Shown here: in pieces, positions 1,052 to 19,742 of the stretch
How the letters are laid out: every line of letters starts with the position of its first letter
How positions within the stretch are numbered: position 1 is the first letter of the stretch
Origin: Clostridia bacterium
GTDB lineage: Bacteria; Bacillota; Clostridia; TANB77; CAG-465
DNA: 64,000 nt
NCBI GenBank assembly: GCA_036660635.1
Contig: JAVXAF010000001.1
Coordinates: forward strand, 17,857-81,856
Direction: 5' to 3'
Made by a program: the position numbers and the translations under genes
Notes under the pieces: model-generated
What the model saw: the letters and a program-made list of their open reading frames with translations, nothing else
Databases searched by the model: none
What the model was told of the DNA's origin: nothing

Positions 1052-2062
1052 TTAAAACGGTGTATTATCTGGTGAAAATCCTTTATCATCTAAATAATAA
1101 AACTCTGTATTTTCATAGTCAAATAAATACATGTTACTTAATAATAATCCCGTTTTTCCATCATTATGTTGTACACCATATGCATCAGTATAACTATTAT
1201 TGAAACACCAAGCAATTTCTCCTTCTTTTATTTTATGATCTGGATCTGCTAATATATTAATATTATCGCCTTGTTTTCCTTTAACTATTCCTATTTCTAT
1301 TTTTTGATTTCTTCCTGAGTTTACAAAATAGTAGAGCGTAGTCAAATCTATAAGAGGAGTTATTACAGTTGGAACAGTTATTCTTTGTCCTTTAAACATA
1401 TCCTTAAATCCACAAATTTTTTCACCTGTATACTGATCAACACGTCCATAAATATCCTCTTCGCCAAATATATAATATTTATTTCCTTTTTGATCAACAA
1501 GATACGGATTATTATGCGGATCCTCTACAATATATTTTTTAAAAGATGCAGAGAAATATAGTTGATCTAGTTTCTCCATATATATTTTTAACTCTGCTTT
1601 AGACATTACATACTCATCAGGCAAAATCAAAGCCAAGTCAAAATCGACAGCATTAGAATATCCATATGCTTCTAGTACATCATTAAATATTTTATATGTT
1701 GTTTCTATATCAAGTTCATTTAGAGCATTTTTTCCATATATATCTTTAGCTATTTTATCTGCTAAGTTAATAAAGTTAAAATTTGAAATCATACCTTCAT
1801 TATTTGTAACTTTTTTTAACGTATTTCCTGTATCTTCTTTAAACCAAGTTGCAATTTTACTTTCTTTTTCAAGTTTCCAGTTTATCTCTAATAATTGTTC
1901 TTGTTCTTTTTCAGTAGCCGTGTTCCATTTTTTTACTGCATCATTTGCCTTTGATATTGGATTATTTTTTAAAAATGTAACTATTACAGCAGTGGCTAAA
2001 ACAATAATAACAATTATCGTTATTACTAAAACTATTAAAGATATTCCTCTTTTGTTTTTCAT
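1052..2062 (-). CDS. Pilin-like surface protein, paralog A (337 aa). N-terminus MKNKRG|ISLIVLVITIIVIIVLATAV is a class-III-signal-like anchor without Glu5.
   Basis: Long ORF. The internal ATG at 2062 is preceded by aaggag with 7-nt spacing, so the listed 28-aa N-terminal extension is rejected. The N-terminus is shared with the pilA-position gene at 19341..19742. It is a near-duplicate of 3900..4925. Confidence 0.7.
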   Translation of the reverse strand: MKNKRGISLIVLVITIIVIIVLATAVIVTFLKNNPISKANDAVKKWNTATEKEQEQLLEINWKLEKESKIATWFKEDTGNTLKKVTNNEGMISNFNFINLADKIAKDIYGKNALNELDIETTYKIFNDVLEAYGYSNAVDFDLALILPDEYVMSKAELKIYMEKLDQLYFSASFKKYIVEDPHNNPYLVDQKGNKYYIFGEEDIYGRVDQYTGEKICGFKDMFKGQRITVPTVITPLIDLTTLYYFVNSGRNQKIEIGIVKGKQGDNINILADPDHKIKEGEIAWCFNNSYTDAYGVQHNDGKTGLLLSNMYLFDYENTEFYYLDDKGFSPDNTPF

Positions 2063-2092
2063 ATATTTTCTCCTTACATATGTTATACAAAC

Positions 2093-2149
2093 TAGTTGCA
2101 TAAGTTTCACTTTATATAGTTTAATATATATATGAAAATTATGCAACTA
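2093..2149. promoter_or_regulatory. 11-bp perfect inverted repeat (tagttgcataa ... 35 nt ... ttatgcaacta) bracketing the predicted promoter of pilin-like paralog A
   Basis: Seen directly. On the minus strand one half-site overlaps a TTGCAT -35-like hexamer and the other lies in the 5' UTR. It is duplicated identically at 4957..5012. Confidence 0.5.
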
Positions 2150-2328
2150 TTTTTTTGTTAAAAATACTATATAGTTTTTAATTATCTTTTTATAGATTTT
2201 TAAATATTGTTAAAATAACTAACCAATCTAATTGTGGGGCAAGTGACAAAGCAATAATTACATTTACAACTATAATGTTAGTATTACTCTTATAAAATAA
2301 CAAGTTACATGTAGCATATTTTATAAAA

Positions 2329-2339
2329 TGTGATATAAT
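2329..2339 (+). promoter_or_regulatory. Extended -10 promoter (TGaTATAAT) for the PHP-domain gene
   Basis: tgtgatataat lies about 55 nt upstream of an RBS (gaaggag) and the ATG at 2393. Confidence 0.45.
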
Positions 2340-2392
2340 ATACATAATTTCAAAAAAATAATTTATATAATTAGTGAAGGAGAATAAAAATA

Positions 2393-3151
2393 ATGAAAAT
2401 CGATTTTCATACACATGGAAAATTATCAAGTAAGTTTCCTTTTGATAGAGAAGAGTTTATGAATAAAATAAATGAAGCCAAGAATGAAGGAATTGATAGT
2501 TTAGCATTAACAGAACATTGTCATGCAATTAATTTTATTGAAATATATAATTTTTTAGCAGATAATTATAAATATATTAATGATTATTATGATGTAGATG
2601 GCTTTAAAGTTTTTACAGGTACAGAAGTAACTACAAATGAGAAACTAGATATTCTCCTTATAGGAAACAGAGAATATATAGTAGAACTAAGTAAGAAAGT
2701 AGAAACTACAAAAGGAAACCAAAAATTTATAGATATAATCGATTTATTTAATATTTTAGATTGTACTAAATTAATAATAATACTTGCTCATCCACTTAGA
2801 AGACATACACTATTTCCTGATATTGATAAAAACATAATAAAAAAAATTGATGCTATAGAATTTAATGCTACAGATTTATATAATAATGGTGTAAGTAATA
2901 TGAAAAATAAAATTGTTGAATTAGGAAAATTATTAAATATTCCAATTACTGGTGGAAGTGATTCACACTACTTTACACAAATTGGTAGTATAAAAAATTG
3001 TTTTAATGTAGAATGTAATACTATTTGTGAGATAAAAGAACAAATTAAAAAGAAAAATTTTATAGTTGAAATATCAGATAATTTGGAGATTAGAGTTAAA
3101 AGTTCAATAATTATAAAAAAACTTATAAAATCATTAGAAATTAATAGTTAA
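2393..3151 (+). CDS. PHP-domain metal-dependent phosphoesterase (histidinol-phosphatase/CpsB-YwqE-like fold)
   Basis: N-terminal IDFHTHGKLS followed by LALTEHCH, with further AHP and GGSDSH motifs typical of PHP domains. Strong RBS gaaggag. Confidence 0.6.
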   Translation: MKIDFHTHGKLSSKFPFDREEFMNKINEAKNEGIDSLALTEHCHAINFIEIYNFLADNYKYINDYYDVDGFKVFTGTEVTTNEKLDILLIGNREYIVELSKKVETTKGNQKFIDIIDLFNILDCTKLIIILAHPLRRHTLFPDIDKNIIKKIDAIEFNATDLYNNGVSNMKNKIVELGKLLNIPITGGSDSHYFTQIGSIKNCFNVECNTICEIKEQIKKKNFIVEISDNLEIRVKSSIIIKKLIKSLEINS

Positions 3152-3225
3152 ATGTAGTATAAGTTACTTAATTTATTACGAAATAAAATTAATATAATTC
3201 GTGTTTTGCCAAAAAACTAAAAAAT

Positions 3226-3313
3226 AAACTAACAAAAAACAAAAGAGATTTATCAGCTCCTGTATATAACTACTACCAAGATATTAAAGCAAAGAGTTGA
3301 TTTTCTTGGCTTT
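3226..3313 (+). pseudogene. Decayed remnant of the 3' end of the beta-CASP gene plus a degenerate copy of its terminator (duplication scar)
   Basis: aacaaaaaacaaaagagatttatcagctcctgtatataactacta ... aaagcaaagagttgattttcttggctttt is about 75% identical to 917..1003. The hairpin arms now mismatch. Confidence 0.45.
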
Positions 3314-3329
3314 TGCTCATTAAAAAAGT

Positions 3330-3362
3330 AAAGCAACTCCAAATTAATGAAGTTGCTTTGAT
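3330..3362 (-). terminator. Terminator for the 135-aa membrane protein gene
   Basis: Hairpin aaagcaactccaaattaatgaagttgcttt, with a T-run following on the minus strand. Confidence 0.5.
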
Positions 3363-3363
3363 T

Positions 3364-3771
3364 TTATTTTTTTCTCTTTTGCTTTTGCTTTTTAATTACT
3401 TTAATATTATTTGTAAAAATAATTAAAAACATTACTGTTGCAATAGAAGATACTATTACAACTATAGCGCTTCCTAACCCTAATAATACCTGAGTGGAAT
3501 CATTAGCATTAGTTATGTATCTTTCAATAGCGTTTCCACTATTAATAAGATCATTTCGCTGTTTTTTAGCTTTTAAGAAAGCTTCTGAAACAGCTTTTTC
3601 GCCTTCTGGAGAATTTGCTACAAGTTCTCTTGTAGTATTAACATTAGCAGAAATGTGCCAAAGTTCATTTGCAGAACTGGCAATTTCCAAAGAAAAAATA
3701 ACGCTCGTAATACTTAAAACAATAAGCATTACATTAATAACCATTTTAATTTTGATTTTTACTGAAGTCAT
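3364..3771 (-). CDS. Hypothetical small membrane protein with N- and C-terminal TM helices (135 aa); present only in copy B of the duplicated module
   Basis: ORF with SD aagga 7 nt upstream of the ATG. Two hydrophobic helices flank a polar middle, and the C-terminus is K/R-rich. Confidence 0.45.
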   Translation of the reverse strand: MTSVKIKIKMVINVMLIVLSITSVIFSLEIASSANELWHISANVNTTRELVANSPEGEKAVSEAFLKAKKQRNDLINSGNAIERYITNANDSTQVLLGLGSAIVVIVSSIATVMFLIIFTNNIKVIKKQKQKRKK

Positions 3772-3847
3772 TATTAAAACATCCTTCTTAATTTATTTTA
3801 TAATAATTATACCACTTTTTCTATGTTATGTCAAGTCAGTTGAAAAA

Positions 3848-3890
3848 TCCTTTTAAAAAAAGAGCTTATAAAAGCTCTTTTTAATTTTTT
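3848..3890 (-). terminator. Hairpin terminator downstream of pilin-like paralog B
   Basis: aaagagcttataaaagctcttt flanked by A/T runs on both strands. Confidence 0.5.
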
Positions 3891-3899
3891 TTTACTTTA

Positions 3900-4925
3900 T
3901 TAAAATGGTGTATTATCTGGTGAAAAGCCTTTGTCATCTAAATAATAAAATTCTGTATTTTCATAGTCAAATAAATACATATTACCTAAAAAGAATCCCT
4001 TTTTCCCCTCATTATGTTCTACGCCATATTCATCAGTATAAATGTCATTAAAACACCAAACAATTTCTCCTTCTTGTATTTTATGCTCTGGATTTGCTAT
4101 TATATTAATATTATCACCTTTTTTTCCTTTAACTATTCCTATTTCTTTTTTTTGATCTCTTGCTGCTTTTACAAAAGCATTGAAAAAAGTCATATCTCCA
4201 AGAGGCTCTATTACAGTTGGCTTAGTTATTCTTTGTCCTTGAAATATATCCTTAAATCCAGAAGTTATTTGACCTGTATACTTATCAACACTTCCATAAA
4301 CATCATTTATACCACATATATAATATTTATTTCCTTTTTGATCAACAAGATAGTCAATAAGTGGATCTGTAGCAATCTCTCGACAAAAGAATACAGAACC
4401 CTCTAGTTGATATTGCCTATCCTCATATTCTTTCAAATCTTTTTCAGGTATAGTATTACCAGGGGTATACTTATTAGGTAACTCCATATCAGCCCACAAC
4501 TCGTCAACATTAGAATATCCATATGCTTCTACTACATTATTAAGTATTTTATATGTTGTTTTTATATCAAGTTCATTTAGAGCTTTTTTTTCATATATAT
4601 CTGTAGCTATTTTAGTTGCTAAGTTAGTAAAGTTAAAATCTGAAATTTTATTATTATTACTATTTATAACTTTTTTTAACGTATCCCCTATAACTGGATC
4701 TTCAAACCAAGTTGCAATTTTACTTTCTTTTTCAAATTTCCAGTTTATTTCTAATAATTGTTCTTGTTCTTTTTCAGTAGCCGTGTTCCATTTTTTTACT
4801 GCCTCATTTGCCTTTGATATTGGATTATTTTTTAAAAATGTAACTATTACAGCAGTGGCTAAAACAATAATAACAATTATCGTTATTACTAAAACTATTA
4901 AAGATATTCCTCTTTTGTTTTTCAT
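3900..4925 (-). CDS. Pilin-like surface protein, paralog B (342 aa)
   Basis: The first ~100 aa and last ~26 aa are identical to paralog A, while the central region is about 60% identical. The upstream ~110 bp promoter/UTR is identical. Confidence 0.7.
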   Translation of the reverse strand: MKNKRGISLIVLVITIIVIIVLATAVIVTFLKNNPISKANEAVKKWNTATEKEQEQLLEINWKFEKESKIATWFEDPVIGDTLKKVINSNNNKISDFNFTNLATKIATDIYEKKALNELDIKTTYKILNNVVEAYGYSNVDELWADMELPNKYTPGNTIPEKDLKEYEDRQYQLEGSVFFCREIATDPLIDYLVDQKGNKYYICGINDVYGSVDKYTGQITSGFKDIFQGQRITKPTVIEPLGDMTFFNAFVKAARDQKKEIGIVKGKKGDNINIIANPEHKIQEGEIVWCFNDIYTDEYGVEHNEGKKGFFLGNMYLFDYENTEFYYLDDKGFSPDNTPF

Positions 4926-4956
4926 ATATTTTCTCCTTACATATGTTATACAAACT

Positions 4957-5012
4957 AGTTGCATAAGTTTCACTTTATATAGTTTAATATATATATGAAA
5001 ATTATGCAACTA
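4957..5012. promoter_or_regulatory. Second copy of the 11-bp inverted repeat bracketing the pilin-like promoter
   Basis: tagttgcataa ... ttatgcaacta, identical to 2093..2149. Confidence 0.5.
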
Positions 5013-5029
5013 TTTTTTTGTTAAAAAAG

Positions 5030-5054
5030 AAAAAACACGTAAATACGTGTTTTA
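5030..5054 (-). terminator. rpmA terminator
   Basis: Hairpin aaaacacgtaaatacgtgtttt followed by a T-run on the minus strand. Confidence 0.6.
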
Positions 5055-5060
5055 AAAATG

Positions 5061-5324
5061 TTATTTTTCTTCTACTGGATAAACGCTAACTTTTTTATCG
5101 CTTTTACCCTTTCTTTCAAATTTTACAATACCATGAACTAAAGAAAATAAAGTATCATCTTTTCCAATACCTACATTAGTGCCTGGATGTATTTTTGTTC
5201 CTCTTTGTCTATATAATATATTTCCTGCTAAAACAAACTGACCATCAGCTCTTTTAGCTCCTAATCTTTTTGATTCACTGTCTCTACCATTTCTAGTAGA
5301 ACCCATACCTTTTTTATGTGCCAC
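5061..5324 (-). CDS. rpmA: 50S ribosomal protein L27 (GTG start, N-terminus MAHKKG with no Prp-cleaved propeptide)
   Basis: [30 protein letters not shown]...FERKGK is canonical L27. SD aaaggagtg lies 7 nt before the GTG, and a TAA stop sits immediately upstream in frame. Confidence 0.95.
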
Positions 5325-5369
5325 TTAAATTCACTCCTTTTTAATCAATTTTATTTAGAAAACTTTATC

Positions 5370-5729
5370 TTAAGCTTCTTCTATTTTTTCTGTTTCAACT
5401 TTTTTAGCTTTTGTTGCTGTAGATATTTTTTCAATTTGTATTTTTGTATATGGCTGTCTATGTCCTCTTGTTTTTCTTTCATTTTTTTTAGCTTTGTATT
5501 TATATACAATAACTTTTTTTTCTTTTCCGTGTCCAATTATAGTAGCACTTATTTTAGCACCTTTAATAGTATCTTCACCAATAGTAACTTTTTTACCATC
5601 AGATATGAATAATACTTGATCAAAAGTAATTGTTTTTCCTTCTTGTGCTTCTTCAATTCTGTCTACAAAAACAATGTCTCCTTCTTGTACTTTATACTGT
5701 TTTCCACTAATTTCAACTATTGCGTACAT
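5370..5729 (-). CDS. rplU: 50S ribosomal protein L21
   Basis: MYAIVEISGKQYKVQEGDIV... Confidence 0.9.
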   Translation of the reverse strand: MYAIVEISGKQYKVQEGDIVFVDRIEEAQEGKTITFDQVLFISDGKKVTIGEDTIKGAKISATIIGHGKEKKVIVYKYKAKKNERKTRGHRQPYTKIQIEKISTATKAKKVETEKIEEA

Positions 5730-5836
5730 CTTTTTTCCTCCTTAAATTCTAACTTTTTCTCGCCATTAAGGTAGTAATAATACATTTTAAAACCTGTTTT
5801 GTGCGGAATACATTTCTTATTTTAGCACTTTTACTA

Positions 5837-6367: not shown

Positions 6368-6537
6368 TTTTTTACCTTCTTCCATTAATAGTGTATATTT
6401 ATTTTATCAGCTTTTTATATTACTACTTTGCTAAAAAAGCTTGAATTTTTCTTTTAATTATAGTATCATTATATATGAAAATTGGTAATATGTCAAACGA
6501 AAAACGTTTGTTATTTACTTGAAAGCGGTGATATTTT

Positions 6538-9036
6538 TTGATAGAAAATTTATTTAATAAATTACATATAAAGACTAAGCCAGATAAAATACTTACTTAT
6601 ATACTATATACCACACTTGCAATAGTTTGCTTTTTTGCAGTTAGTAAAATACTTATATTTATACTTGGAGATTCAAGGCTTACTAAAGCAGTTTCACCAT
6701 ATATAATTTCATTGCTATTTTTAATACCTTATTTGGCTTATTCGTTTTTTGTGAATTCAGGAATTCCAAAAAATGATATGGATAGATTAAAAATGTATAT
6801 TTTTTCATATACAGGCTTAATAATTATACTTTATTATTTGATTTGTAATTGGACAAGTACTGCTGCGTGGTTATTAATAGAAAAAATACCAAATTATACT
6901 GCTGTAATAAAAATGTATCCTCAGTTATTTGCACCAGCTATAAAATCTATTGGAATATTATTTCCTTTTATACTTACATTCCAAGTAGCTGATTATTTTC
7001 TATTTATATTAAGAGATGATGATTATTCTAAAGCAATTGCTGGTTATACAGGACTATCTCTTGTAAAATCTACTAAAGATAAAGGTCCTTTTTCTTGTGA
7101 AACTGTAATTTGTACAGAAAAAGGAACATCTCTTCCTGTTATTGTTCCAGAGAGTAAGCGTTACGAAGCCACTCTTGTTCAAGGTGCTACTGGTACTGGT
7201 AAAACTGCAACTGTTCTTTTACCAATGAGTGCTCTAGATTTGGAGAGAAAATTTTTCTTTAGAGAATTTTCTAAAAAAATCGGATATTCAATGCTAAAAA
7301 AAGGAATCGCATATATGACTGGTCCTTTTAATAATGAATATGTAAATAAAACTTTCACTCTAAACTATTTAAAACCTAGACGTGGAATGGAAGAGCAATT
7401 TTTAAATTGCGTTAAGCCTATGGTTCAATATATTGATAATTCTAGTGGTAAAATAACATATAGAGATATTGGTATAACAGTAATTGAAAATGATGGTGAC
7501 TTTATTTCTAAGTTTATTGGTGTTGCTAATAATTTTGGTATTGATATTTTATCTATTGATCCTGCCGCACCAGAGACTACCCTTAGTATAAATCCATTTG
7601 CAATTCCAGATCCAGCAAAAGTTGCTTCAATTGTTGCCGATGTTTTAAATGCAATGTATGAGAGCACAGGTGGTGGAAAAGCTGGCGATCCATTCTTTAC
7701 TCAAGTAACAATAGATGCGTTCCAAAACTTATCTATACTTCTTAAAGAAATGTTTCCATTGTTGCATAATGGTGAGATTGCTAGTTTAGAAGATATGTTA
7801 GAACTACTTTACAATTTTGATGCTGTTGAAGAAATGACAGAAGAAATGAAGAAAGTTCCAGAATTAGAACAAAAATATAAACTATTAATTAGATACTTTG
7901 AGAAAAATTTCTATAAACCTTCTTTAAATATTAACGGATATGAAATCCCTGGTACTCGTGGTAGTGGTAGAAAAGATACTGAAAAATTTTTATATGGTGC
8001 TATTACTCAACTTAATAACCTAGTTAGACACCCAGGTCTAAAAGCTGCTCTTTGTGGTAAAACTAACATAATCGATTTTGATAAAGCTCTTGATAATGGA
8101 AATATTATTACTGCTTGTTCTAGAAAAGGTGAACTTGGTATTATTCAATCTAAAGCATTTGGTATGTTTTTCATATTGCAATTCCAAGATGCAGTACTTA
8201 GAAGAAAAGGTAATGAAAATTCTAGAACTCCTCATTTTCTATATATTGATGAATTTCCAGAATATATAACAAAAGATATGGAAGTTTTATTTACACTATT
8301 TAGAAAGTATAGATGTGGTGTTACAATAGCAATACAAAACTTATCTCAACTTGAAAAAAGTGGAAAAGATTATTATAGACAAGTTGTACTTGCAAATACA
8401 AAAACACAAATTGTATTTGGTGATACCGTACCAGAAGATAGTGAATACTGGGAAAAAGCTTTTGGAAAAGAGAAAAAGCCAGATGAAACTAATACTTTTG
8501 ATTTAACTGATGGTCAAATGACTAAAAAAACAACTATTAAGATGGAGAAAAAATTAAGAGCAGAATGGTTTAAAGTAGCTGAACAAGGATTTGGAGCTGT
8601 CTTTTTCAAAACGAAAAATTCCTATGGTAAAACTATATTTGGTCAAGGTAAAACATCTTTCTTAGATGGTAAATATATGGAAAAATCTGATTTGTTAATG
8701 TTTAACTTTGAAAAATATATGATGAGCAAACCAGATGAACCTACAATAACAATTAATGATAGTGACAAAGATAGTGACTCTGATAAACTATTTGGCGTAA
8801 ATACTTCTAGCAGATTAAATGAAGAATTAAATAACATTTCTTCAAAAAAAGAACCACCTGTGGCAAATGACGAAACATTTGTAAACACAGTACCAACTAA
8901 TACAATGCCAGATACAAATATAGATGACTTTGAAATTATATTCGATGATGAGCCAAACTTAGAAGATGCAAATGTAGATGGCGGTGCAATTACAGAAACA
9001 TATGAAACCTCAGCAATTAAAAGAAATAAAAAATAA
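6538..9036 (+). CDS. Membrane-anchored P-loop ATPase of the VirD4/TraG/TraD (type IV coupling protein-like) family; 4 predicted N-terminal TM helices, acidic C-terminal tail
   Basis: Walker A TLVQGATGTGKTATVLLPM, Walker B-like FLYIDEFPEY, and a hydrophobic N-terminal ~170 aa. TTG start. No relaxase, VirB4 or other T4SS genes nearby. Confidence 0.6.
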   Translation: MIENLFNKLHIKTKPDKILTYILYTTLAIVCFFAVSKILIFILGDSRLTKAVSPYIISLLFLIPYLAYSFFVNSGIPKNDMDRLKMYIFSYTGLIIILYYLICNWTSTAAWLLIEKIPNYTAVIKMYPQLFAPAIKSIGILFPFILTFQVADYFLFILRDDDYSKAIAGYTGLSLVKSTKDKGPFSCETVICTEKGTSLPVIVPESKRYEATLVQGATGTGKTATVLLPMSALDLERKFFFREFSKKIGYSMLKKGIAYMTGPFNNEYVNKTFTLNYLKPRRGMEEQFLNCVKPMVQYIDNSSGKITYRDIGITVIENDGDFISKFIGVANNFGIDILSIDPAAPETTLSINPFAIPDPAKVASIVADVLNAMYESTGGGKAGDPFFTQVTIDAFQNLSILLKEMFPLLHNGEIASLEDMLELLYNFDAVEEMTEEMKKVPELEQKYKLLIRYFEKNFYKPSLNINGYEIPGTRGSGRKDTEKFLYGAITQLNNLVRHPGLKAALCGKTNIIDFDKALDNGNIITACSRKGELGIIQSKAFGMFFILQFQDAVLRRKGNENSRTPHFLYIDEFPEYITKDMEVLFTLFRKYRCGVTIAIQNLSQLEKSGKDYYRQVVLANTKTQIVFGDTVPEDSEYWEKAFGKEKKPDETNTFDLTDGQMTKKTTIKMEKKLRAEWFKVAEQGFGAVFFKTKNSYGKTIFGQGKTSFLDGKYMEKSDLLMFNFEKYMMSKPDEPTITINDSDKDSDSDKLFGVNTSSRLNEELNNISSKKEPPVANDETFVNTVPTNTMPDTNIDDFEIIFDDEPNLEDANVDGGAITETYETSAIKRNKK

Positions 9037-9408: not shown

Positions 9409-12153
9409 CTACTTTCCACAGCATTGTTTATATTTTTTTCCCGAACCACATGGGCAAGGTTCATTTCTTCCAACTTTTTTTGCGACCTTAATAGGTTCTT
9501 TTTTACCTTCATTGGACCCAGATTCGTTTGTAGTGACATTTCTTATTGTAGTTGTTACATTACCTGTATTTTGTTCATCTTTCTTTCTAACTGCAAATAC
9601 GGCTTTAGTAGCATCTGCTTGAATTGAAGAGATTAGTTCTTCAAACATTTCAAAGCTCTCTATTTTATATGCTTCAATTGGATTAGTTTGACCATATGCT
9701 CTAAGTCCTATTCCATCTTTTAGTTGAGATATTGCATCTATATGATCCATCCATTTTTCATTTACTATATTTAATATTAAATGTCTTTCGATCATATTTA
9801 AAACATCTTCTTTTTTAAGATTTCTAAACTCTTCATGCCTCTTGTTATACACATTTTCAACTTTTTTTATTAATATTTCTTCAATTTCTTCACTATCAAC
9901 TACTTCAATTTCTTCTTTTCTTAGCATTTCTTCTTGTGAAAATAGATTTAAAAGTAAAGCATTTATAGTTGTAAAATCTACATCTTCAATTATTTCAGCT
10001 TTTGAAAAATACTCATCTACAATTTTTCGTATGCATGCATTTGAAAGATTAAATACAATCTTAGAAATATCTTGTGTATTTAAAACTTCTCTTCTTTGAC
10101 CATATATTAATTCTCTTTGCTTATTTATAACATCATCATATTCTAAAACTGATTTTCTTATTGAAAAATTTCGTCCTTCTACTTTACTTTGTGCACTTGA
10201 AATTGCATTACTAAGCATACCTTGTTCTATTGGAACATCTTCTGGTAAACCTAATCTTGCAACCATACTTGCCATTCTATCTGTTCCAAATAGTTTCATC
10301 AAGTCATCATCTAGTGCAATATAAAATCTTGTAGAGCCAGGGTCTCCTTGACGCCCAGCACGTCCTTTTAACTGATTATCTATTCTTCTTGATTCATGAC
10401 GTTCACTACCAATTATTCTCAGCCCACCAGCTTCAACAACTTTTTTTCTATCTTCTTCTAATACACTTTTAAATTTCTTTTCTATTTCTACAATATCTTG
10501 TTTTGCTTTTTTTACTTCTTCATTATTATAGTTTATTGGAGTAATAGCCATTTCAATAACTTCAGGTGTATATCCTTTTTTTGATAATTCTTCTTTTATA
10601 ATATACTCTAAGTTTCCACCTAGCATAATATCCGTTCCACGTCCTGCCATATTAGTTGCTATTGTTATAGCTTTATACTTTCCTGCTTGTGCAATTATTT
10701 CAGCTTCTTTTTCATGGAATTTAGCATTAAGCACCTTATGTGGTATATTCTCTTTTTTTAATAAAGCACTTATTATTTCTGATTTATCAATTGATACTGT
10801 ACCTACTAAAACTGGTTGACCTTTTGCATAACACTCTTTTACATCTTCAACTATTGCGATATATTTTGCTTTTTGAGTTTGATATACAACATCATTGAAA
10901 TCTGTTCTTTGAACATCTTTATTTGTTGGTATTTCCACAACATCAAGTTTATATATTCCTTTAAATTCATCTTCTTCTGTTTTGGCAGTACCTGTCATAC
11001 CCGCAAGTTTAGAATATAGTCTAAAATAGTTTTGAAAAGTAATTGTAGCAAGTGTCTGACTCTCAGATGCAATTTTTACATTTTCCTTTGCTTCTATTGC
11101 TTGATGAAGTCCATCACTATATCTTCTGCCTTGCATAACACGTCCTGTAAACTCGTCAACAATTAAAACTTCTCCATCTTTTACTATATAATCTTTATCT
11201 TTTGCCATTAGCCCATATGCTCTTAAAGCTTGATTAATATGGTGTGACATTGCTAAATTGTCTACATCTGAGAGTGAAGTTATTTCGAATTTTTCTTCTA
11301 CTTTTTTTGTTCCATTCTCAGTAAGTGCAACAGTATGAGCTTTTAGATCTACTATATAATCAAAATTTTCATCTGTCTCATCTACTTCTTTATCATTAGC
11401 CTCAACTATAACCTTTGCTTTTAAAGTTTTTGCTATCTTATTTGCTTTTTCATATAAATCAGTTTGCTTATCAATCATACCTGATATAATAAGAGGAGTA
11501 CGCGCCTCATCAATTAAAATAGAGTCTATTTCATCTACTATAGCATAATTTAGATCTCTTTGAGTCATAGAGTCTTTGCTCATAGCCATATTATCTCTTA
11601 AATAGTCAAAACCAAATTCATTGTTTGTACCGTATGTTATATCGGCAGCATATGCTTCTTTTTTTTGCTCAGGAGACATTCCTGATATTACAAGACCTAC
11701 ACTAAGTCCTAAAAATCTGTATAGCTTACCCATCCAAATACTATCTCTTTTAGCAAGATAATCATTTACTGTTACAACATGTACGCCTTTTCCTGATAGT
11801 GCATTTAGATATACAGGCAAAGTTGCAACTAGAGTTTTTCCTTCACCTGTTTTCATTTCAGCTATTCTACCTTGATGAAGAATAATTCCTCCAATCAATT
11901 GAACTCTAAAATGCTTCATAGATAGTACTCTACTACTTGCTTCAGCTACAACTGCATATGCTTCTGGCAAAATATCATCTAGAGTTTCTCCTGCTTCTAA
12001 TCTTTTTTTAAATTCATTTGTTTTATTTTTTAATTCCTCATCACTAAGGCATTTTATTTTTTCTTCAATTTGTTCTATTTTATCCACTACAGGTATAATT
12101 CTTTTTATTTCTCTTTTGCTATATGATCCAAATATTTTTTCTATAACACTCAT
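9409..12153 (-). CDS. secA: Preprotein translocase ATPase SecA
   Basis: 914 aa with the DEAD-like motor and a C-terminal zinc-binding tail CPCGSGKKYKQCCG. Confidence 0.97.
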   Translation of the reverse strand: MSVIEKIFGSYSKREIKRIIPVVDKIEQIEEKIKCLSDEELKNKTNEFKKRLEAGETLDDILPEAYAVVAEASSRVLSMKHFRVQLIGGIILHQGRIAEMKTGEGKTLVATLPVYLNALSGKGVHVVTVNDYLAKRDSIWMGKLYRFLGLSVGLVISGMSPEQKKEAYAADITYGTNNEFGFDYLRDNMAMSKDSMTQRDLNYAIVDEIDSILIDEARTPLIISGMIDKQTDLYEKANKIAKTLKAKVIVEANDKEVDETDENFDYIVDLKAHTVALTENGTKKVEEKFEITSLSDVDNLAMSHHINQALRAYGLMAKDKDYIVKDGEVLIVDEFTGRVMQGRRYSDGLHQAIEAKENVKIASESQTLATITFQNYFRLYSKLAGMTGTAKTEEDEFKGIYKLDVVEIPTNKDVQRTDFNDVVYQTQKAKYIAIVEDVKECYAKGQPVLVGTVSIDKSEIISALLKKENIPHKVLNAKFHEKEAEIIAQAGKYKAITIATNMAGRGTDIMLGGNLEYIIKEELSKKGYTPEVIEMAITPINYNNEEVKKAKQDIVEIEKKFKSVLEEDRKKVVEAGGLRIIGSERHESRRIDNQLKGRAGRQGDPGSTRFYIALDDDLMKLFGTDRMASMVARLGLPEDVPIEQGMLSNAISSAQSKVEGRNFSIRKSVLEYDDVINKQRELIYGQRREVLNTQDISKIVFNLSNACIRKIVDEYFSKAEIIEDVDFTTINALLLNLFSQEEMLRKEEIEVVDSEEIEEILIKKVENVYNKRHEEFRNLKKEDVLNMIERHLILNIVNEKWMDHIDAISQLKDGIGLRAYGQTNPIEAYKIESFEMFEELISSIQADATKAVFAVRKKDEQNTGNVTTTIRNVTTNESGSNEGKKEPIKVAKKVGRNEPCPCGSGKKYKQCCGK

Positions 12154-12988: not shown

Positions 12989-12995
12989 ATTTTCA

Positions 12996-13306: not shown

Positions 13307-13335
13307 TTGACTTTTATCAATTATTATTGTATAAT
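13307..13335 (+). promoter_or_regulatory. Consensus sigma-A promoter TTGACT-17-TATAAT (orphan unit 2)
   Basis: ttgact tttatcaattattattg tataat. Confidence 0.6.
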
Positions 13336-13341
13336 ATGCAC

Positions 13342-13536: not shown

Positions 13537-13539
13537 TTT

Positions 13540-14871
13540 TTAAGGAATTTGTATAAATGATCCCATATATACATTGATAAGTGGTACCATTACAGTAATC
13601 ATAAAGAATATAAGTGCAATACCAACAAAAATATATGTTATATCTGGAAGCCACTTAACAAATTTAGCAATAGACTCATCTATTTCCATTACAATATATT
13701 CATTTACTTTTTCCATCATCTCGGCAAGATCTGTTTTCATTCCTATATCAATCATTTCTGTAACCATTGGTTTAAATAGCTTTTTTTCTTCAAATGGTAT
13801 CATCCAAGATCCACCTGATAAAGCGTTAACTTTACCTGCTTCAATTACAGATAAGAAATAGTAATTTTTAGTTACATTTTTTGAAATATCTAAACTTTCT
13901 TGTATTCTCATACCATTTTTTAAATTAAGCAACATAGCTTGAAAAAATTTACTAATTGTTATATTAATATTTAATGGTCCTATAACCGGTATTTTCATAA
14001 TAAGTCTATCAAAATTATATTTTCCTTTTGGTGTATTAATATATGCAAAAAATCCTAAAACTAATAAACCTATTGCTGCTACAACAAAATACCAATTTGC
14101 TACAAACCACTTTGCAATATTTAGACCAATCATAGTTGCAGCTGGTATTTTTTCATTAGAGTCAAACATATCATATACTGATTGTAAAAGTGGAACACCA
14201 ATAATAAGCGCTGCAAACATTGCGATTATAATTCCAAAAAATTGTAACAGTCTTGGAATTACTGCAGATGTAATTTTTTTTCTTAATTTTGTAGATGATT
14301 CTACATAATCTCTTGCGTAAAGTAATGCTGTATCTAGAGTTCCAGACTCTTCACCAACTTTTACGAAGTTTATATACATAGTTGGAAATACTCTGGGATA
14401 ATTTTCCATTACAGCGTACATTCTCTCACCTGATTGAACACCAATTAGTATATCCTCAATTACATTTTTAAAATATTTGTTTTCAGTACCATCATGCACA
14501 GCTTCTAAGGCTTGAATATTATTAAATTTAGCTTTTTTCAATATATATATATTATTTGAAAATATTATTAAATCTTTTGCGCTTACATAATTTATAAATG
14601 TAATCCCATTTTTTGCTAAATCTTTAAATTTCAGATTTTTAAAATTAATTTTACCACTTTCTTTAACTCTTTGCTTTTTGTCTTCTTTTATTAATTTTTC
14701 ATAATCTAGTCTTTTATATTTCTTTTTATTATCTTTCATTTTTTCTACAAAAATTGGTTGAGTGCCATCTTTTTTTAAACTATCAATGGCTAGTGACTTA
14801 TTTAATGCCATGATTCTTCCTCTACCTAATTTTCCATCTTGATATATAACTCTATATTTGTAACTTGGCAA
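13540..14871 (-). CDS. pilC: Type IV pilus assembly platform protein PilC (GspF family, two GspF repeats)
   Basis: 443-aa polytopic protein with the architecture and location typical of PilC/GspF. Confidence 0.85.
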   Translation of the reverse strand: MPSYKYRVIYQDGKLGRGRIMALNKSLAIDSLKKDGTQPIFVEKMKDNKKKYKRLDYEKLIKEDKKQRVKESGKINFKNLKFKDLAKNGITFINYVSAKDLIIFSNNIYILKKAKFNNIQALEAVHDGTENKYFKNVIEDILIGVQSGERMYAVMENYPRVFPTMYINFVKVGEESGTLDTALLYARDYVESSTKLRKKITSAVIPRLLQFFGIIIAMFAALIIGVPLLQSVYDMFDSNEKIPAATMIGLNIAKWFVANWYFVVAAIGLLVLGFFAYINTPKGKYNFDRLIMKIPVIGPLNINITISKFFQAMLLNLKNGMRIQESLDISKNVTKNYYFLSVIEAGKVNALSGGSWMIPFEEKKLFKPMVTEMIDIGMKTDLAEMMEKVNEYIVMEIDESIAKFVKWLPDITYIFVGIALIFFMITVMVPLINVYMGSFIQIP

Positions 14872-14891
14872 TTAAATCGCACCTCCTTTTA

Positions 14892-15992
14892 CTAGTCTGA
14901 TAAAGATCCACCCTCGCCTATTATAATACTTTTAATTATTTGAAATCTATCCGGATCTACATTAGCTTTTACTGTAGCTATATCTATAAGTCCTTTTAAA
15001 TATAAATCTGCAAATGAGTTTTCAAAGCTTAAACATCCCTTTTCTCTTTGACTATGAATAGTATCTTCTATATCTGAGACGTTAAACTTTTCTTGTCTCA
15101 TTTGAGCAGCTATTGTATTATTTACTAACATAACTTCTGGAACCATTAAAAGTTCACCTTTTGTGCTAACAACTAATTTTTGTGAAACTACCATTTTTAA
15201 CACTGAAGACACTGCATTTTTTATAGTTTGTTGATCTGAAGGAGAATACATACTTATTATTCTTTCTACTGTCTCACCACAAGAACGTGTATGTAATGTT
15301 CCAATAACAAGGCCACCTGACTCTGCAAGATCAATAGCAACATCCATAGTTTCTTTGTCTCTTATCTCTCCTAAAACAGCTATATCTGCGTCTTCTCTTA
15401 GTAGATTTATTAATCCATCATGGAAACTTACAACATCAGACTCAGCACCAATTTCTTTTTGTATAATTATTGATTTATCTGATACATGCTCATACTCAAC
15501 TGGATCTTCCAAAGTTACTATTTTTTTATTACTTTCTCTGTTTACCTCTTGAACAAATCCATTCATAGTTGTTGATTTACCAGAGTTTACTTTACCAGTA
15601 ACAAGTATAAGGCCATTTGAAATACTTTTCATTCTTTCAATTATTTGTCTAAGTCCCATACTATTTACATCAATATCTCCATTAGGTATTACCCTCATTG
15701 AAAATGTAGGTAGACCCTTAGTAAGTGATATGTTTATTCTAAATCTATGCTCAGAATATGTATATGAAAAGTCAATTTGTTTTTTTATTTTAAAGTTAGA
15801 ACTTAAGGCTGGAAACCTCTTATAGAAAAAGTTTAATATTTCTTCTAGTGAGATATCTGAGAGTGCAAGTCTAGTCTGATCAAAAAACAACTTTTTTTTC
15901 ACTCTAAAAACTGGAGTTTGTCCTGGTGCCAAATGAATATCTGTAGCTCCTAAACTTATTCCTTTATCAAGTATTGAATGTAATAGTTCCAT
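14892..15992 (-). CDS. pilT: Type IV pilus retraction ATPase PilT
   Basis: LVTGKVNSGKSTTM Walker A, GEIRD, and a ~366-aa PilT-size secretion ATPase. Confidence 0.85.
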   Translation of the reverse strand: MELLHSILDKGISLGATDIHLAPGQTPVFRVKKKLFFDQTRLALSDISLEEILNFFYKRFPALSSNFKIKKQIDFSYTYSEHRFRINISLTKGLPTFSMRVIPNGDIDVNSMGLRQIIERMKSISNGLILVTGKVNSGKSTTMNGFVQEVNRESNKKIVTLEDPVEYEHVSDKSIIIQKEIGAESDVVSFHDGLINLLREDADIAVLGEIRDKETMDVAIDLAESGGLVIGTLHTRSCGETVERIISMYSPSDQQTIKNAVSSVLKMVVSQKLVVSTKGELLMVPEVMLVNNTIAAQMRQEKFNVSDIEDTIHSQREKGCLSFENSFADLYLKGLIDIATVKANVDPDRFQIIKSIIIGEGGSLSD

Positions 15993-16033
15993 ATTTTTTC
16001 CCCTTATTTTAATTATATATTATTTTTATCATA

Positions 16034-17671
16034 TTATATTGTTATTTTTCTTTTTAATTCTGGTATTGTAGTAACACCACTTAATACTTTTTTTACACCA
16101 TCTACTACAAGTGGTTTGTATTCTGTATTTTTAATTGCATATTCTTTTAGCTCCAAATTAGGTTTTCCATCTGCTATCATATCTTTCATATAGTCATCTA
16201 TACAAAGTATCTCAAACACGCCTATTCTCTCGTAATATCCTATATCATTGCAATATTTACATCCAACTGGTTCAAATGGATGAGAATTTTTAATGTCAAA
16301 CTCAGTTCCTGTAAGCTTAGTTACTTTATCAATATACTTTAGTTCTTCTTCTGTAAAATCATGAGGTTTTTTACATTTGTCACATAATCTTCTTACAAGC
16401 CTTTGTGATATTGTAGTAACAACACTAGACGATACATCGTAGCTTGATACTCCCATTTTTCTCATTCTTGTTATTGCTTCAATTGCATCAATTGTATGTA
16501 GAGTAGATAATACTAAGTGACCAGTTTGACCTGCTTCTACAGCTGTTTTTGCTGTTTCTTCGTCTCTTATCTCACCTACTAGTATAATATCTGGATCTTG
16601 TCTTAGAACTGTTCTAAGAGCTGATGCAAATGTTATATTAGGGCCTATTTCAACTTGGTTAATACCTGGTATTCTACGTTCAACTGGATTCTCAATTGAA
16701 ATAATATTTATTGATGGCTTGTCTAAGTACTCAAGCACGCTATACAAAGTTGTAGTTTTACCCTCACCTGTTGGAGCACATACTATAATCATACTGTTTC
16801 TTTTATCAAATGCTCTTTCAACAAGCTCGGAATCTTTTTCAAAACCAAGTTCAAATAAATCTCTTGCTTCTGCATTTTTTCTTAAAAGTCTTAATACAAA
16901 TTTTTCTCCAAAAACATTTTTTTGAGTAGATACACGAATACTAAAATTATCATATGTATCAATACTTCCATCTTGATCATATGCAATTTCTTGATGCATA
17001 TTTGATATTGATTTTAACCTTCCTGTTATGATTTCTTGTCTATTTTTAGGAAGTTCAGTTATTGGTATTAGTTCTCCATCAATTCTATATCTTATCCTTA
17101 TTTTTGTATCCATTGGTTCTACATGTATATCTGATGCTCTTTTATCAATTGCGGTCATTATTATATTATCAATAAGCTTAGAAATATCTTTTTCTTCTTT
17201 ATTTACAAATCCTGATTCAACAGTTTTAATACTAGAAATTTGTTTCATTATAGAAGTATATAGAGTTGCATATATTTCCATATTAAATCCTTGATTCATA
17301 AGTAAAAGTTCTATTTCTTTTACTTTACTTGCATTTTGTGGATCTGCAAATGCAACTTTTAGCGTATTTCCATCTAGAGCAAAAGGGAAAGCTTTATAGT
17401 TTATTATTATATCTCTTGGAAGATATTGAACTGGATTTATTTCAACATCATCTTGTAAAAGTGTTGAATTAATTTGTATTTTAAATGAAAGTACTTCAAG
17501 TAACTGCTCTTTATCACACATATCTAATATATCAACAATTTCACCAAACTTCAAATCTTTGTGCTCTTTTTGATATTCAAGAACTCTATCTACTTGACTT
17601 TCACTTAAAAGTCCCCTTTTTATAAACTCAATGCCAATTGGTGTTTTTCTAGATTTAACATTTTCAAACAT
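16034..17671 (-). CDS. pilB: Type IV pilus assembly ATPase PilB (GspE family)
   Basis: VCAPTGEGKTTTLYS, VGEIRDEETA, and the CxxC...CxxC zinc motif of GspE-type ATPases. Confidence 0.9.
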   Translation of the reverse strand: MFENVKSRKTPIGIEFIKRGLLSESQVDRVLEYQKEHKDLKFGEIVDILDMCDKEQLLEVLSFKIQINSTLLQDDVEINPVQYLPRDIIINYKAFPFALDGNTLKVAFADPQNASKVKEIELLLMNQGFNMEIYATLYTSIMKQISSIKTVESGFVNKEEKDISKLIDNIIMTAIDKRASDIHVEPMDTKIRIRYRIDGELIPITELPKNRQEIITGRLKSISNMHQEIAYDQDGSIDTYDNFSIRVSTQKNVFGEKFVLRLLRKNAEARDLFELGFEKDSELVERAFDKRNSMIIVCAPTGEGKTTTLYSVLEYLDKPSINIISIENPVERRIPGINQVEIGPNITFASALRTVLRQDPDIILVGEIRDEETAKTAVEAGQTGHLVLSTLHTIDAIEAITRMRKMGVSSYDVSSSVVTTISQRLVRRLCDKCKKPHDFTEEELKYIDKVTKLTGTEFDIKNSHPFEPVGCKYCNDIGYYERIGVFEILCIDDYMKDMIADGKPNLELKEYAIKNTEYKPLVVDGVKKVLSGVTTIPELKRKITI

Positions 17672-17683
17672 ATAACTTCCTCC

Positions 17684-17905
17684 TTACCTATTTTCATTTA
17701 TTTTAATTATTGTTTTTTCATAAAATCCATTTATATCTTCTACTGATTTACTATATTTTTCTACTATGTTTTTTTCATATTTATTAGTTAGTATGTCAAA
17801 ATGTTCTTGCTCAGAAAAAGTTGACATTGCATATATGGAAAAAGTAACAGAAGTTAAAATAACCAATAATACTCCTGAGCCTTTTAATCTATTTTTTTTA
17901 CTCAT
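17684..17905 (-). CDS. Small pilin-like protein (73 aa; KGSG|VLLVI N-terminus)
   Basis: Short ORF overlapping the upstream gene by 8 nt. Basic residues, then Gly, then a hydrophobic helix. Confidence 0.4.
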   Translation of the reverse strand: MSKKNRLKGSGVLLVILTSVTFSIYAMSTFSEQEHFDILTNKYEKNIVEKYSKSVEDINGFYEKTIIKINENR

Positions 17906-18377
17906 TTAATTCATCTCCTAGTGCAAAGAAAAACTCACAACTTTTTTCTTCCTTATATTTTAAAAACTTGATTTTTGTTGCAAAACTCTTAGATGCACTA
18001 TCTATTTTTGCTAAAGTTTCAGCATTAATTGAAGTAAGATTAGAAGGTAAAATATCAAATTTACACTCTTCTACTGACTTTACTAATACGCCACCATTTT
18101 TAAAAATAGTTTTTTTTGTACTATCATATGTATATATATCATTATTTGAAAAAGTGATTTTATCTGCTGTTGTCTCTACCCACTGACTTGACTTTGCACT
18201 ACTTAATAGATTTACTTGTAGTTTATCTCTTTGCTCATTAATGTATATATTTCCCTTCTCAGTCATAATTTTATAATTCATATTAGCACTCATTGCAACT
18301 GCAAAAGTAGTAAACAAAAAGAATAACACAACATACAAAACTATTGAAACCATTGTAAGACCAGAAGCTTTTTTCAT
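17898..18377 (-). CDS. Minor pilin-like protein (159 aa; KKASG|LTMVS)
   Basis: Class-III-like N-terminus without Glu5, located in the pilus operon. Confidence 0.5.
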   Translation of the reverse strand: MKKASGLTMVSIVLYVVLFFLFTTFAVAMSANMNYKIMTEKGNIYINEQRDKLQVNLLSSAKSSQWVETTADKITFSNNDIYTYDSTKKTIFKNGGVLVKSVEECKFDILPSNLTSINAETLAKIDSASKSFATKIKFLKYKEEKSCEFFFALGDELNE

Positions 18378-18380
18378 ATG

Positions 18381-19178
18381 TTACACCTTCCCTTTTAAAG
18401 TATCTAAACTAAATTCTTTTGGTTTACCATCTACCATATACTCTACCTTAACATTTACTTTTTTTACAATATCTTCTTTTGACAAATCCTCATCACAATA
18501 TTTTGAAACACTAGTGCTTACCATATAAGTTATATTATCCATTTTTTCTGATGTGGTAGACGAATCCAGTAAATCATACTTTGTTGCAAGTGACACTTCA
18601 ATATTTTTTGTAGCTATCGCAATAGCATTGCTCTTAGCAATGTTTATTATAGACTTCTTTTGATAATTTAAACTCATAATATATGAAGATACTAAAAAAA
18701 GTGTAAACATTATCATAGCTACAACAAGCTCAGATAAAAATACTCCGCTCTTTTTACTTAGTTTTTTTTTATTTAGTTCTACTTTTTCTTCTTCACTCAT
18801 TTTAGATTTCATAATTAAAGATCCTGCTATAGTAAATATAACAGCATATACAAGGCATACAACAAGCAAAGTAAAAGTATAACCAAATATAAAATATAGC
18901 AAAACAAATACTATACCATTAGAAAGCTCTAAAAGTATATATCTAGGACTTATTTGAGAACCACAATACTTGCATTTTCCTCCTCTTATAACAAAACTTA
19001 AAATTGGAATTAAATCGAAAAATCCAAGTCTATGTTTACAACTTGTACAATATGATCTCGTAGCCACTATGTCCTGATGTCTTGGAAGTCTATAGGTAGC
19101 AAGTGAGAAGAAACTTCCAAATAAAGTACCAATTACAAATATACAAAATACAACAAATATATTTAAAAATACTAACAC
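18381..19178 (-). CDS. Fusion ORF: PilD N-terminal domain (TM1, 4-Cys loop, TM2-3; no A24 peptidase catalytic domain) fused in frame to a canonical pilin domain (KKSG|VFLSE)
   Basis: The first ~120 aa match the prepilin peptidase N-terminus (CTSCKHRL...GGKCKYCGSQISPRYILLEL). Then come MKSKMSEEEK...KKSGVFLSELVVAMIMFTLF and a soluble pilin-like C-terminus. No other ORF of 60 aa or more in this interval could supply the peptidase domain. Confidence 0.6.
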   Translation of the reverse strand: MLVFLNIFVVFCIFVIGTLFGSFFSLATYRLPRHQDIVATRSYCTSCKHRLGFFDLIPILSFVIRGGKCKYCGSQISPRYILLELSNGIVFVLLYFIFGYTFTLLVVCLVYAVIFTIAGSLIMKSKMSEEEKVELNKKKLSKKSGVFLSELVVAMIMFTLFLVSSYIMSLNYQKKSIINIAKSNAIAIATKNIEVSLATKYDLLDSSTTSEKMDNITYMVSTSVSKYCDEDLSKEDIVKKVNVKVEYMVDGKPKEFSLDTLKGKV

Positions 19179-19189
19179 TAGCTCACCTC

Positions 19190-19260
19190 CATGAATAATA
19201 TTTACATTTTACAATATACTTAAGTATACTCTAAAATATATATATAGTGGTTAGACCATA
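19190..19260 (-). terminator. Possible attenuator/terminator hairpin downstream of the major pilin gene
   Basis: gaccatatacacagcagagtatatatggcc stem, flanked by A/T-rich sequence. Confidence 0.3.
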
Positions 19261-19340
19261 TACACAGCAGAGTATATATGGCCTTTCCATTTAATCGTAT
19301 TTTAAAATTTTAATTTATTTAATTACTACACTCTAGTAGT

Positions 19341-19742
19341 TTATTTTGTGATTGTAAGTGAACCATCTACTACTGTATATGTGGCTACTTTTCCTTTCAT
19401 TTCAGGTAATCCAATCTCTGACCATTCTACTCTTAATACTACTATACCACTTGCAATCAAGTCCGCAGGTAATGCATCTGTTTTTTTATCTGATATATAA
19501 ACATGAGTCTTACCCTCTAGTAGTGACTTATAGTCTGCAGCCTCTGCTTGTTTAGATGCTAAATATAATGATAATGCAGACTTAACTTCAGCCTTATCGT
19601 TAGCTGTTACTGCATCTCCTGCTTTTGCAATTGGATTGTTTCCATTATTAAATGATAGAATAACTGCTGCTGCTAAAATGATTATAACGATTATTGTTAT
19701 AACTAATACGATTAAAGAAATACCTTTTTTGTTTGCTTTCAT
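19341..19742 (-). CDS. Major pilin candidate (133 aa), N-terminus MKANKKG|ISLIVLVITIIVIIILAAAV without Glu5
   Basis: Sits at the pilA position in the locus. Shares its N-terminal 40 aa with the two 340-aa paralogs at the left end of the window. Confidence 0.65.
   Translation of the reverse strand: MKANKKGISLIVLVITIIVIIILAAAVILSFNNGNNPIAKAGDAVTANDKAEVKSALSLYLASKQAEAADYKSLLEGKTHVYISDKKTDALPADLIASGIVVLRVEWSEIGLPEMKGKVATYTVVDGSLTITK

Follow-up and report, generated by a model that had tools for sequence, protein, structure and literature searches.

Candidate type IV pilin modules with valine in place of Glu5 in a pilus-like locus of uncultured gut Clostridia

The 64,000-nucleotide (nt) stretch of DNA analysed here (the window; positions 17,857 to 81,856 of contig JAVXAF010000001.1) comes from the low-GC (~27%) metagenome-assembled genome (MAG) of an uncultured, spore-forming "Clostridia bacterium" and carries a complete type IV pilus-like locus on its minus strand, directly after the spoIIIAA-AH operon. 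The protein of 133 amino acids (aa) encoded in the pilA slot of this locus and two large paralogs encoded elsewhere in the window all begin with K-K/R-G↓ISLIVLVITIIVII, where the arrow marks the predicted cleavage site. Position -1 is therefore Gly and position +5 is Val, whereas Glu5 has been stated to be absolutely conserved in bacterial type IV pili (PMC10710030). On balance, we consider it probable that these Glu5-less (E5-less) N-termini are class III (type IV pilin) signals that double as polymerisation modules, of a divergent kind with Val in place of Glu5. The locus also encodes a fusion protein in which the methylase half of PilD is joined to a GspI-like minor pilin and the peptidase half is absent.

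The N-terminus of the pilA-slot protein is MKANKKG↓ISLIVLVITIIVIIILAAAV, and that of both paralogs is MKNKRG↓ISLIVLVITIIVIIVLATAV. Inspection of the sequence bore out what the initial annotation had reported for these three proteins, namely Gly at -1 and Val at +5, as well as its claims that two small pilin-like proteins of the locus (159 and 73 aa; Table 1) lack Glu5 and that the sole Glu5 of the locus lies in the pilin domain fused to the PilD homolog, at an internal KKSG↓VFLSE. Its size of ~340 aa for the paralogs also stands, as 336 and 341 aa; the 364- and 369-aa versions that an open reading frame (ORF) finder begins at TTG are spurious. The Shine-Dalgarno (SD) sequence AAGGAGG lies 7 nt ahead of the pilA ATG, and AAGGAG lies 8 nt ahead of the ATG at 2062. 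No longer ORF that restores Glu5 was found, and pilA cannot be extended upstream. Alternative starts that restore Glu5 were thus ruled out by the good SD sequences at the proposed ATGs and the lack of a longer pilA ORF, and the possibility raised in the initial annotation that Glu5 would reappear with a corrected start did not materialise. We also considered whether the pattern is an artefact of annotation or assembly, arising from wrong starts, frameshifts or a degraded locus in one MAG. The sequence does come from a MAG, and the TTG starts given by the ORF finder were wrong. However, strong SD sequences precede the proposed starts, identical proteins occur in two independent MAGs, and the same architecture is found in six loci of different species and in thousands of database proteins. 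This conservation at the level of the family excludes an artefact, to which we assign next to no probability.

A search with the 133-aa protein retrieved 553 unannotated proteins in which the first ~35 residues are near-invariant and the remainder is ~40% identical. All 120 pilA homologs listed out of the 553 have ISLIVL at +1 to +6, with Val at +5, Thr at +9 and Gly at -1, and precomputed Pfam annotation places no domain on any of these 120. The search with a large paralog retrieved 478 proteins, 190-600 aa in length, whose similarity is confined to the N-terminal ~45 residues; the GISLIVL block is present in each of the 119 listed. The C-terminal domains of these homologs include FGE-sulfatase, dockerin, LRR_5/LRR_8, GH18 and LamG, among others, and at least 20 of the homologs are supplied by one MAG. 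An exhaustive profile search of 1.84 billion representatives matched 15,847 proteins at E<=1e-3, of which 2,426 reach E<=1e-10. When +5 was scored in 123 newly retrieved top representatives, Val was found in 114, Thr in 6, and Met, Ile and Ser in one each; Glu and Asp were found in none. Apart from a handful named PilE or PulG automatically at JGI, these proteins are called hypothetical in the databases. The common pattern consists of a short basic leader up to an invariant Gly and a hydrophobic helix of 24 residues; after an Asn-rich hinge (NNNNP) come a predicted second helix and a predicted small beta-sheet. Residues I1 to L24 are all hydrophobic save S2 and T9, and within them lies a near-invariant core, I1 S2 L3 I4 V5 ... 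T9; a hydroxyl at +2 is invariant, and Gly14 and Pro22 are absent.

Scanning the GTDB species genomes yielded 174 confirmed stretches encoding the module, all from gut MAGs labelled Clostridia, including Clostridium sp. CAG:465. A gut MAG carries at least 12-18 E5-less genes, which encode proteins of 113-923 aa (median about 390 aa), most of them large. The genes for the longer proteins (as much as 923 aa) are dispersed across the genome, and their products have adhesin- or enzyme-like C-terminal domains. Pfam searches of 97 GTDB members identified BspA-type LRR_5 (12), GLUG (6), LRR_8 (3) and DUF6273 (3), in addition to one GDSL lipase, one N-domain of M26 peptidases (M26_N) and one beta-helix, and left ~70 members without a known domain. 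The cargo of the family (LRR_5, GLUG, LamG, dockerin, GH18, M26) is typical of modular pilins and adhesins. E5-less genes often stand in tandem arrays of two to three (GTDB loci L004-L079, e.g., L028, L035, L008 and L020). The core reads ...TIIVMIILA, with Met at +13, in most gut MAGs and has Ile at that position in the clade of the window; these cores look like lineage-specific sub-variants of the module. A sibling MAG of the same organism, GCA_036657795.1 (L086), encodes further E5-less proteins at 17468-18574 and 10001-11323, namely a 368-aa BspA-type LRR_5 protein and a 440-aa protein with no recognised fold, and their genes adjoin those for an FtsX/MacB-type ABC transporter and a D-Ala-D-Ala carboxypeptidase.

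The conservation of the module does not reflect recent copying. Across 101 gene copies, the 18-residue core has 86 different coding sequences, with Ser2 specified by both TCN and AGY codons, which indicates purifying selection on the protein. This synonymous diversity rules out gene conversion as the cause of the N-terminal identity across species. Gene conversion may act locally between the two paralogs in the window, which are 70% identical as proteins and arose by a tandem duplication ~2.85 kb apart (repeat units 1042-2135 and 3890-4998). The first 300 nt at the 5' end of the duplicated units, which comprise the promoter region and the N-terminal module, are 99% identical, and the remainder is 87-88% identical; the 5' identity suggests local gene conversion or stronger constraint at that end. 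Between the paralogs lie genes for a PHP-domain protein and a 135-aa membrane protein. Members of the family combine the pilin module with a non-pilus domain, as modular pilins do, but the window paralogs do not in any recognisable form, as the C-terminal ~290 aa of both gave nothing significant in Pfam or NCBIfam.

The behaviour of the N-terminus points to a prepilin signal. Leaders range from 3 to 22 residues and vary in sequence, yet the conserved block begins at Gly every time, which resembles a prepilin cleavage site rather than a generic anchor. When the family profile was compared with sequences in the PDB, three matches were obtained, and all are type IV pilins (two Geobacter PilA-N and S. 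sanguinis PilE1). These matches are weak (E 0.06-0.77), and the two Geobacter alignments cross the cleavage site in register and place Val5 opposite Glu5. Alignment with hhalign to the Glu5-bearing module of the PilD fusion gave the same register, with KKG↓ISLIV on KKG↓VFISE. Among the hallmarks of class III signals, a basic leader with Gly at -1 and a hydrophobic alpha-1N of ~20 residues are present, Glu or Asp at +5 is absent, and the gene is associated with those for an extension ATPase and a platform protein (PilB, PilT, PilC, a PilN-domain protein and a PilO-like protein). An AlphaFold2 (AF2) model of the 133-aa protein, built from an alignment of 62 sequences (predicted local distance difference test, pLDDT, 81), has a helix at residues 5-32 (pLDDT 94-97), a second helix at 37-67 and four strands. 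The structural modelling proposed in the initial annotation returned the N-terminal helix and a four-stranded sheet, but not an unbroken helix, as discussed below.

The position of the small E5-less gene is likewise conserved. Six pilus loci were examined: that of the window and five others (L001, L002, L047, L084 and L085), which repeat the gene order of the window. In six of six, the pilA slot beside PilB, PilT and PilC is occupied by one or two short E5-less genes; the member in this slot is always small (113-230 aa), and some loci have tandem copies. Orthologs of the 159-aa ORF in L001, L002, L084 and L047 keep Gly at -1 and lack Glu5, and orthologs of the 73-aa ORF in L001, L002, L084 and L085 begin G↓V/I..VI/V. 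No canonical Glu5 pilin was found in the related loci that were scanned. These observations bear on an alternative in which this class III signal serves to display proteins on the surface or to secrete them, such that the proteins are cleaved and handled by PilB and PilC but form short pseudopilus- or bindosome-like assemblies or become monomers that are released or retained in the wall, as for type II secretion pseudopilins and archaeal sugar-binding proteins with pilin-type signals. The size, dispersal and number per MAG of the E5-less proteins, most of which are large cargo proteins, are consistent with such a role, and loss of Glu5 is expected to weaken processive docking according to one model (PMC5207764). 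On the other hand, the constant presence of a small, sometimes tandem member in the pilA slot, the presence of a PilT retraction ATPase and the conservation of all 24 hydrophobic residues, which exceeds what recognition by the peptidase alone needs, argue against it, and we regard display or secretion without long filaments as rather unlikely.

The PilD homolog of the locus is built in the order of an A24_N_bact Zn-finger methylase domain, two transmembrane helices, a Lys-rich linker and a GspI-like minor-pilin module. The C-terminal Peptidase_A24 domain with its two catalytic Asp residues is not present in this protein, which Pfam matches to A24_N_bact only. The initial annotation had called it a PilD fragment, which is incorrect: the same methylase-pilin architecture recurs in at least 120 clusters of homologs, which measure 255-299 aa, are 49-69% identical over full coverage and match A24_N_bact only, and in which the Zn-finger cysteines C44, C47, C69 and C72 are invariant, as are G145 and E150. 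In the most distant locus, the fusion site reads G↓GLNVD, so that +5 is still acidic. Both AF2 and Foldseek identify residues 145-265 as a pilin module. The AF2 model (pLDDT 82) has one continuous helix at 145-198 followed by four strands, and GspI-type minor pseudopilins head the list of Foldseek matches and recur through it, including XcpV in 9a1f_R (template modelling score, TM-score, 0.65), EpsI in 2ret and 3cfi (TM-score 0.57-0.69) and XcpV in 5bw0 and 5vtm.

Several results weigh against a polymerising pilin module. No N_methyl or TIGR02532 match to the window pilins was obtained in Pfam and NCBIfam even at E<=0.1, so that the profile search suggested in the initial annotation came out empty. 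The predicted helix of the 133-aa protein breaks at NNNP, unlike the continuous alpha-1 of canonical pilins, and a Foldseek search with its model returned no significant match and no pilin. Replacement of Glu5 by Val (E5V) abolishes assembly of the ComGC pilus (PMC3694846), and Glu5 substitutions reduce or eliminate assembly of TcpA, as cited in PMC5207764. Finally, no Peptidase_A24 domain was found in the window, in the 10-kb flanks of the five other loci, in the right flank of the contig or in two regions of the sibling MAG. A scan of ~1.2 Mb around E5-less genes for GxGD-type motifs, which represents a small part of each genome, also gave no prepilin peptidase, and none of the N-termini listed for 35 polytopic membrane ORFs of the same loci resembles that of a prepilin peptidase. 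Because this hunt covered a small part of each genome, it is not evidence of absence; the search for a canonical pilD and for Glu5 pilins called for in the initial annotation has accordingly been made in part, and neither a Peptidase_A24 domain nor a canonical Glu5 pilin was seen in the regions scanned.

The lack of a peptidase domain near the loci examined, the unmatched N_methyl and TIGR02532 profiles, the classic assembly-dead nature of Val5 and the lack of a pilin among the Foldseek matches would all fit a second alternative, in which the N-termini are uncleaved signal anchors of type II topology whose helix recruits the proteins to a membrane partner such as PilMNO, and the proteins are not functional pilins. 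Yet Gly is invariant at the junction of leader and helix despite variation in the length and sequence of the leader, the helix aligns in register with pilin alpha-1N, one of the genes sits at the pilA position, and a plain anchor does not need 22 invariant residues under purifying selection across species; the limited reach of the peptidase search further reduces the weight of its negative result. We therefore consider uncleaved anchors unlikely. The initial annotation had posed an unusual Glu5-independent filament and signal-anchored proteins as its two options, and both remain the right alternatives, with the evidence leaning towards genuine pilin modules.

If the E5-less N-termini are pilin modules, as we favour, the proteins would be inserted into the membrane, and a prepilin peptidase whose gene lies elsewhere would cleave them after Gly -1. 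Extraction by the PilB/PilC machine would give a filament with an entirely hydrophobic, uncharged core, packed in a manner akin to archaeal and Tad pili with a continuous alpha-1 helix. The N-terminal amine would be satisfied by the invariant hydroxyl at position 2 (Ser2, the counterpart of Thr2) and perhaps by Thr9, instead of a salt bridge to Glu5. The major subunit would be the 133-aa protein. The large paralogs, among them both of those in the window, would be modular pilins that share its alpha-1N and are presented by one machine. Priming or docking would be the task of the lone minor pilin with Glu5, the GspI-like module joined to the methylase domain of PilD. The presence of PilT implies that such a filament is dynamic. 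Cleavage and polymerisation of the E5-less proteins are what we infer from their sequence and genomic setting. In the Tad pilus of Caulobacter, no contact between subunits involves Glu5, and it is Thr2 that bonds the N-terminus of the neighbouring subunit (PMC10710030), which makes a core free of Glu5 structurally plausible, and Glu5 is dispensable for tip pilins (PMC5207764, PMC10191384). A full-text search for the motif strings found no paper in the library searched, the curated libraries hold no model of the motif, and literature searches on Glu5-less major pilins yielded only Glu5 mutants and tip minor pilins. On the literature, a Glu5-independent filament is plausible but unusual. More tentatively, we propose as a possibility somewhat short of even that this is a pilus lineage lacking the salt bridge between Glu5 and the N-terminal amine altogether. 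Its filament would be retractile and made of Val5 pilins, with a core that is hydrophobic throughout and resembles that of archaeal or Tad pili. One machine would present modular pilins with adhesin and enzyme domains, drawn from a large and exchangeable set that numbers a dozen to several dozen per genome and shares one invariant alpha-1N. PilD would be split, with its methylase fused to the only Glu5-bearing minor pilin, which primes or docks assembly, and with a separate peptidase performing the cleavage.

The features of the locus are collected in Table 1. From its size and position, we infer that the 544-aa PilN-domain protein is a PilM-PilN fusion. The PilO-position protein had no Pfam match. 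Gly at -1 is absent from both small single-transmembrane proteins encoded between pilO and pilA. Low-complexity segments rich in Asn, Gly and Thr, such as GNDNSGNTNNNTNGGGSTSTT and nine consecutive Thr, form tails or linkers in the shorter of these and in the PilO-position protein and may be wall-spanning spacers. A neighbouring small protein shows weak NCBIfam similarity to BasB of the bindosome (E 0.026), which we record as a curiosity only.

Table 1. Positions of the pilus genes and E5-less paralogs in the window, and of the PilD fusion in the five other loci
Feature	Position	Strand	Evidence
Paralog 1, 336 aa, E5-less module (MKNKRG↓ISLIVLVITIIVIIVLATAV)	1052-2062	-	Sequence, SD
Paralog 2, 341 aa, E5-less module	3900-4925	-	Sequence
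PilC platform protein	13540-14871	-	Pfam T2SSF 6.5e-30, two stretches
PilT-type retraction ATPase, 366 aa	14892-15992	-	Pfam T2SSE 2.8e-35
PilB extension ATPase	16034-17671	-	Pfam T2SSE 2.3e-98 and MshEN
Pilin-like protein, 73 aa (KGSG↓VLLVI, +5 = Ile)	17684-17905	-	Sequence
Minor-pilin-like protein, 159 aa (MKKASG↓LTMVS, +5 = Ser)	17898-18377	-	Sequence
PilD homolog without peptidase domain, 265 aa	18381-19178	-	Pfam A24_N_bact 4.5e-28
pilA-slot gene, 133-aa E5-less pilin-like protein	19341-19742	-	Sequence, strong SD, homologs
Small single-transmembrane protein, 168 aa	19819-20325	-	Sequence; conserved between pilO and pilA
Small single-transmembrane protein, 135 aa	20338-20745	-	Sequence; conserved between pilO and pilA
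PilO-position protein, bitopic, 244 aa	20773-21507	-	Position and conservation
Protein with PilN domain, 544 aa	21507-23141	-	Pfam PilN 2.7e-5, residues 471-533; kept in all loci
PilD fusion, L001	11041-11853		
PilD fusion, L002	10637-11440		
PilD fusion, L047	10489-11352		
PilD fusion, L084	10001-10810		
PilD fusion, L085	10001-10825		

The spoIIIAA-AH genes (23454-28386) lie directly upstream of the pilus locus (13540-23141) on the same strand, and the same arrangement is found in all other loci examined from this clade (L001, L002, L084 and L085); this adjacency could be plain synteny or a sporulation-linked context for expression. A scan for promoters and terminators around pilA scored the coding strand no better than shuffled background, and an Rfam scan of the whole 64 kb matched no family, including the cyclic di-GMP (c-di-GMP) riboswitch. 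The window also encodes an HD and EAL protein, a possible c-di-GMP phosphodiesterase, at 53849-55471 on the minus strand, and a sortase gene lies just past its right end (L080, 7451-8212). Between pth and secA, an orphan TraG/VirD4-like coupling protein of 832 aa with N-terminal transmembrane segments is encoded at 6538-9036 on the plus strand; it matched T4SS-DNA_transf (2e-9), TraG-D_C and TrwB_AAD_bind in Pfam, and no other conjugation genes were found nearby.

What is new here is a probable type IV filament system whose pilins lack Glu5 and whose PilD is split, and in which the pilins would be cleaved and polymerised. Glu5 is central to the present docking models of how pili assemble and retract and of N-methylation. 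The E5V substitution is the standard assembly-dead mutation (PMC3694846, PMC5207764), and a natural Val5 lineage, with Val5 in the pilA-slot protein and thousands of relatives, would offer a direct experimental handle on the need for Glu5 and N-methylation, on the relation of archaeal-like to bacterial packing, and on the number of cargo domains that one pilus machine can display. The family also exposes a blind spot, as pilin finders based on motifs (IPR012902, PilFind-type patterns) miss all of it, and consequently this part of the surface proteome of abundant uncultured gut Clostridia is now labelled "hypothetical".

The E5-less proteins share features with several known systems and match none of them fully. 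Like bacterial type IVa pilins (PilA of C. difficile and C. perfringens, PilE1 of S. sanguinis), the pilA-slot protein has a basic leader up to Gly, an alpha-1N in register (xS/TLIxLxVxIxII.ILA) and a predicted small alpha/beta globular domain, and its locus encodes PilB, PilT, PilC, a putative PilM/N fusion and a PilO-like protein. It differs from them in having Val for Glu5 and Ile for Phe1, in the absence of Gly14 and Pro22, in its Asn-rich hinge with Pro at +25 to +29, in leaving N_methyl and TIGR02532 unmatched, and in a PilD without a peptidase domain. Archaeal pilins, archaellins and other class III substrates, such as the sugar-binding bindosome proteins of Sulfolobus, resemble the family in having a leader with Gly or Ala at -1, no conserved Glu5, many unrelated cargo proteins with one signal per genome, and a continuous hydrophobic alpha-1 of the kind proposed for the family. 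However, the present proteins match no archaeal flagellin/pilin or Class_IIIsignal family of Pfam at E<=0.1, their machinery is bacterial and like that of type IVa pili, with PilT and PilMNO, and their alpha-1N is closest to that of bacterial pilins. Tad/Flp (type IVc) pili resemble the proposed filament in a continuous alpha-1 without Pro22 and in a peptidase (TadV) separate from any methylase domain, but their pilins keep Glu5 and Tyr6, measure 40-60 aa and are served by TadA/B/C machinery with no PilT.

The closest parallel for the large members is found in modular pilins, in which a pilin module bears a grafted functional or adhesin domain, as in PilB (with vWA) and PilC (with lectin) of S. 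sanguinis (PMC8179133), and the cargo is similar, comprising lectin/LamG, LRR and M26 peptidase domains. Raynaud et al. 2021 (PMC8179133) catalogued modular pilins by means of IPR012902, a motif that contains Glu5, and the E5-less family was thus invisible to that survey. The family differs from known modular pilins in having far more copies per genome (at least 12-18). Among well-known bacterial pilin-like proteins, the tip minor pilins of the GspK/PilX type, which can also be large, are to our knowledge alone in lacking Glu5 naturally. Each system has one such pilin, which caps the tip, and none takes the major-pilin slot. In the system described here this arrangement is inverted, such that the pilin in the major slot and nearly all others are E5-less, and one GspI-like minor pilin keeps Glu5.

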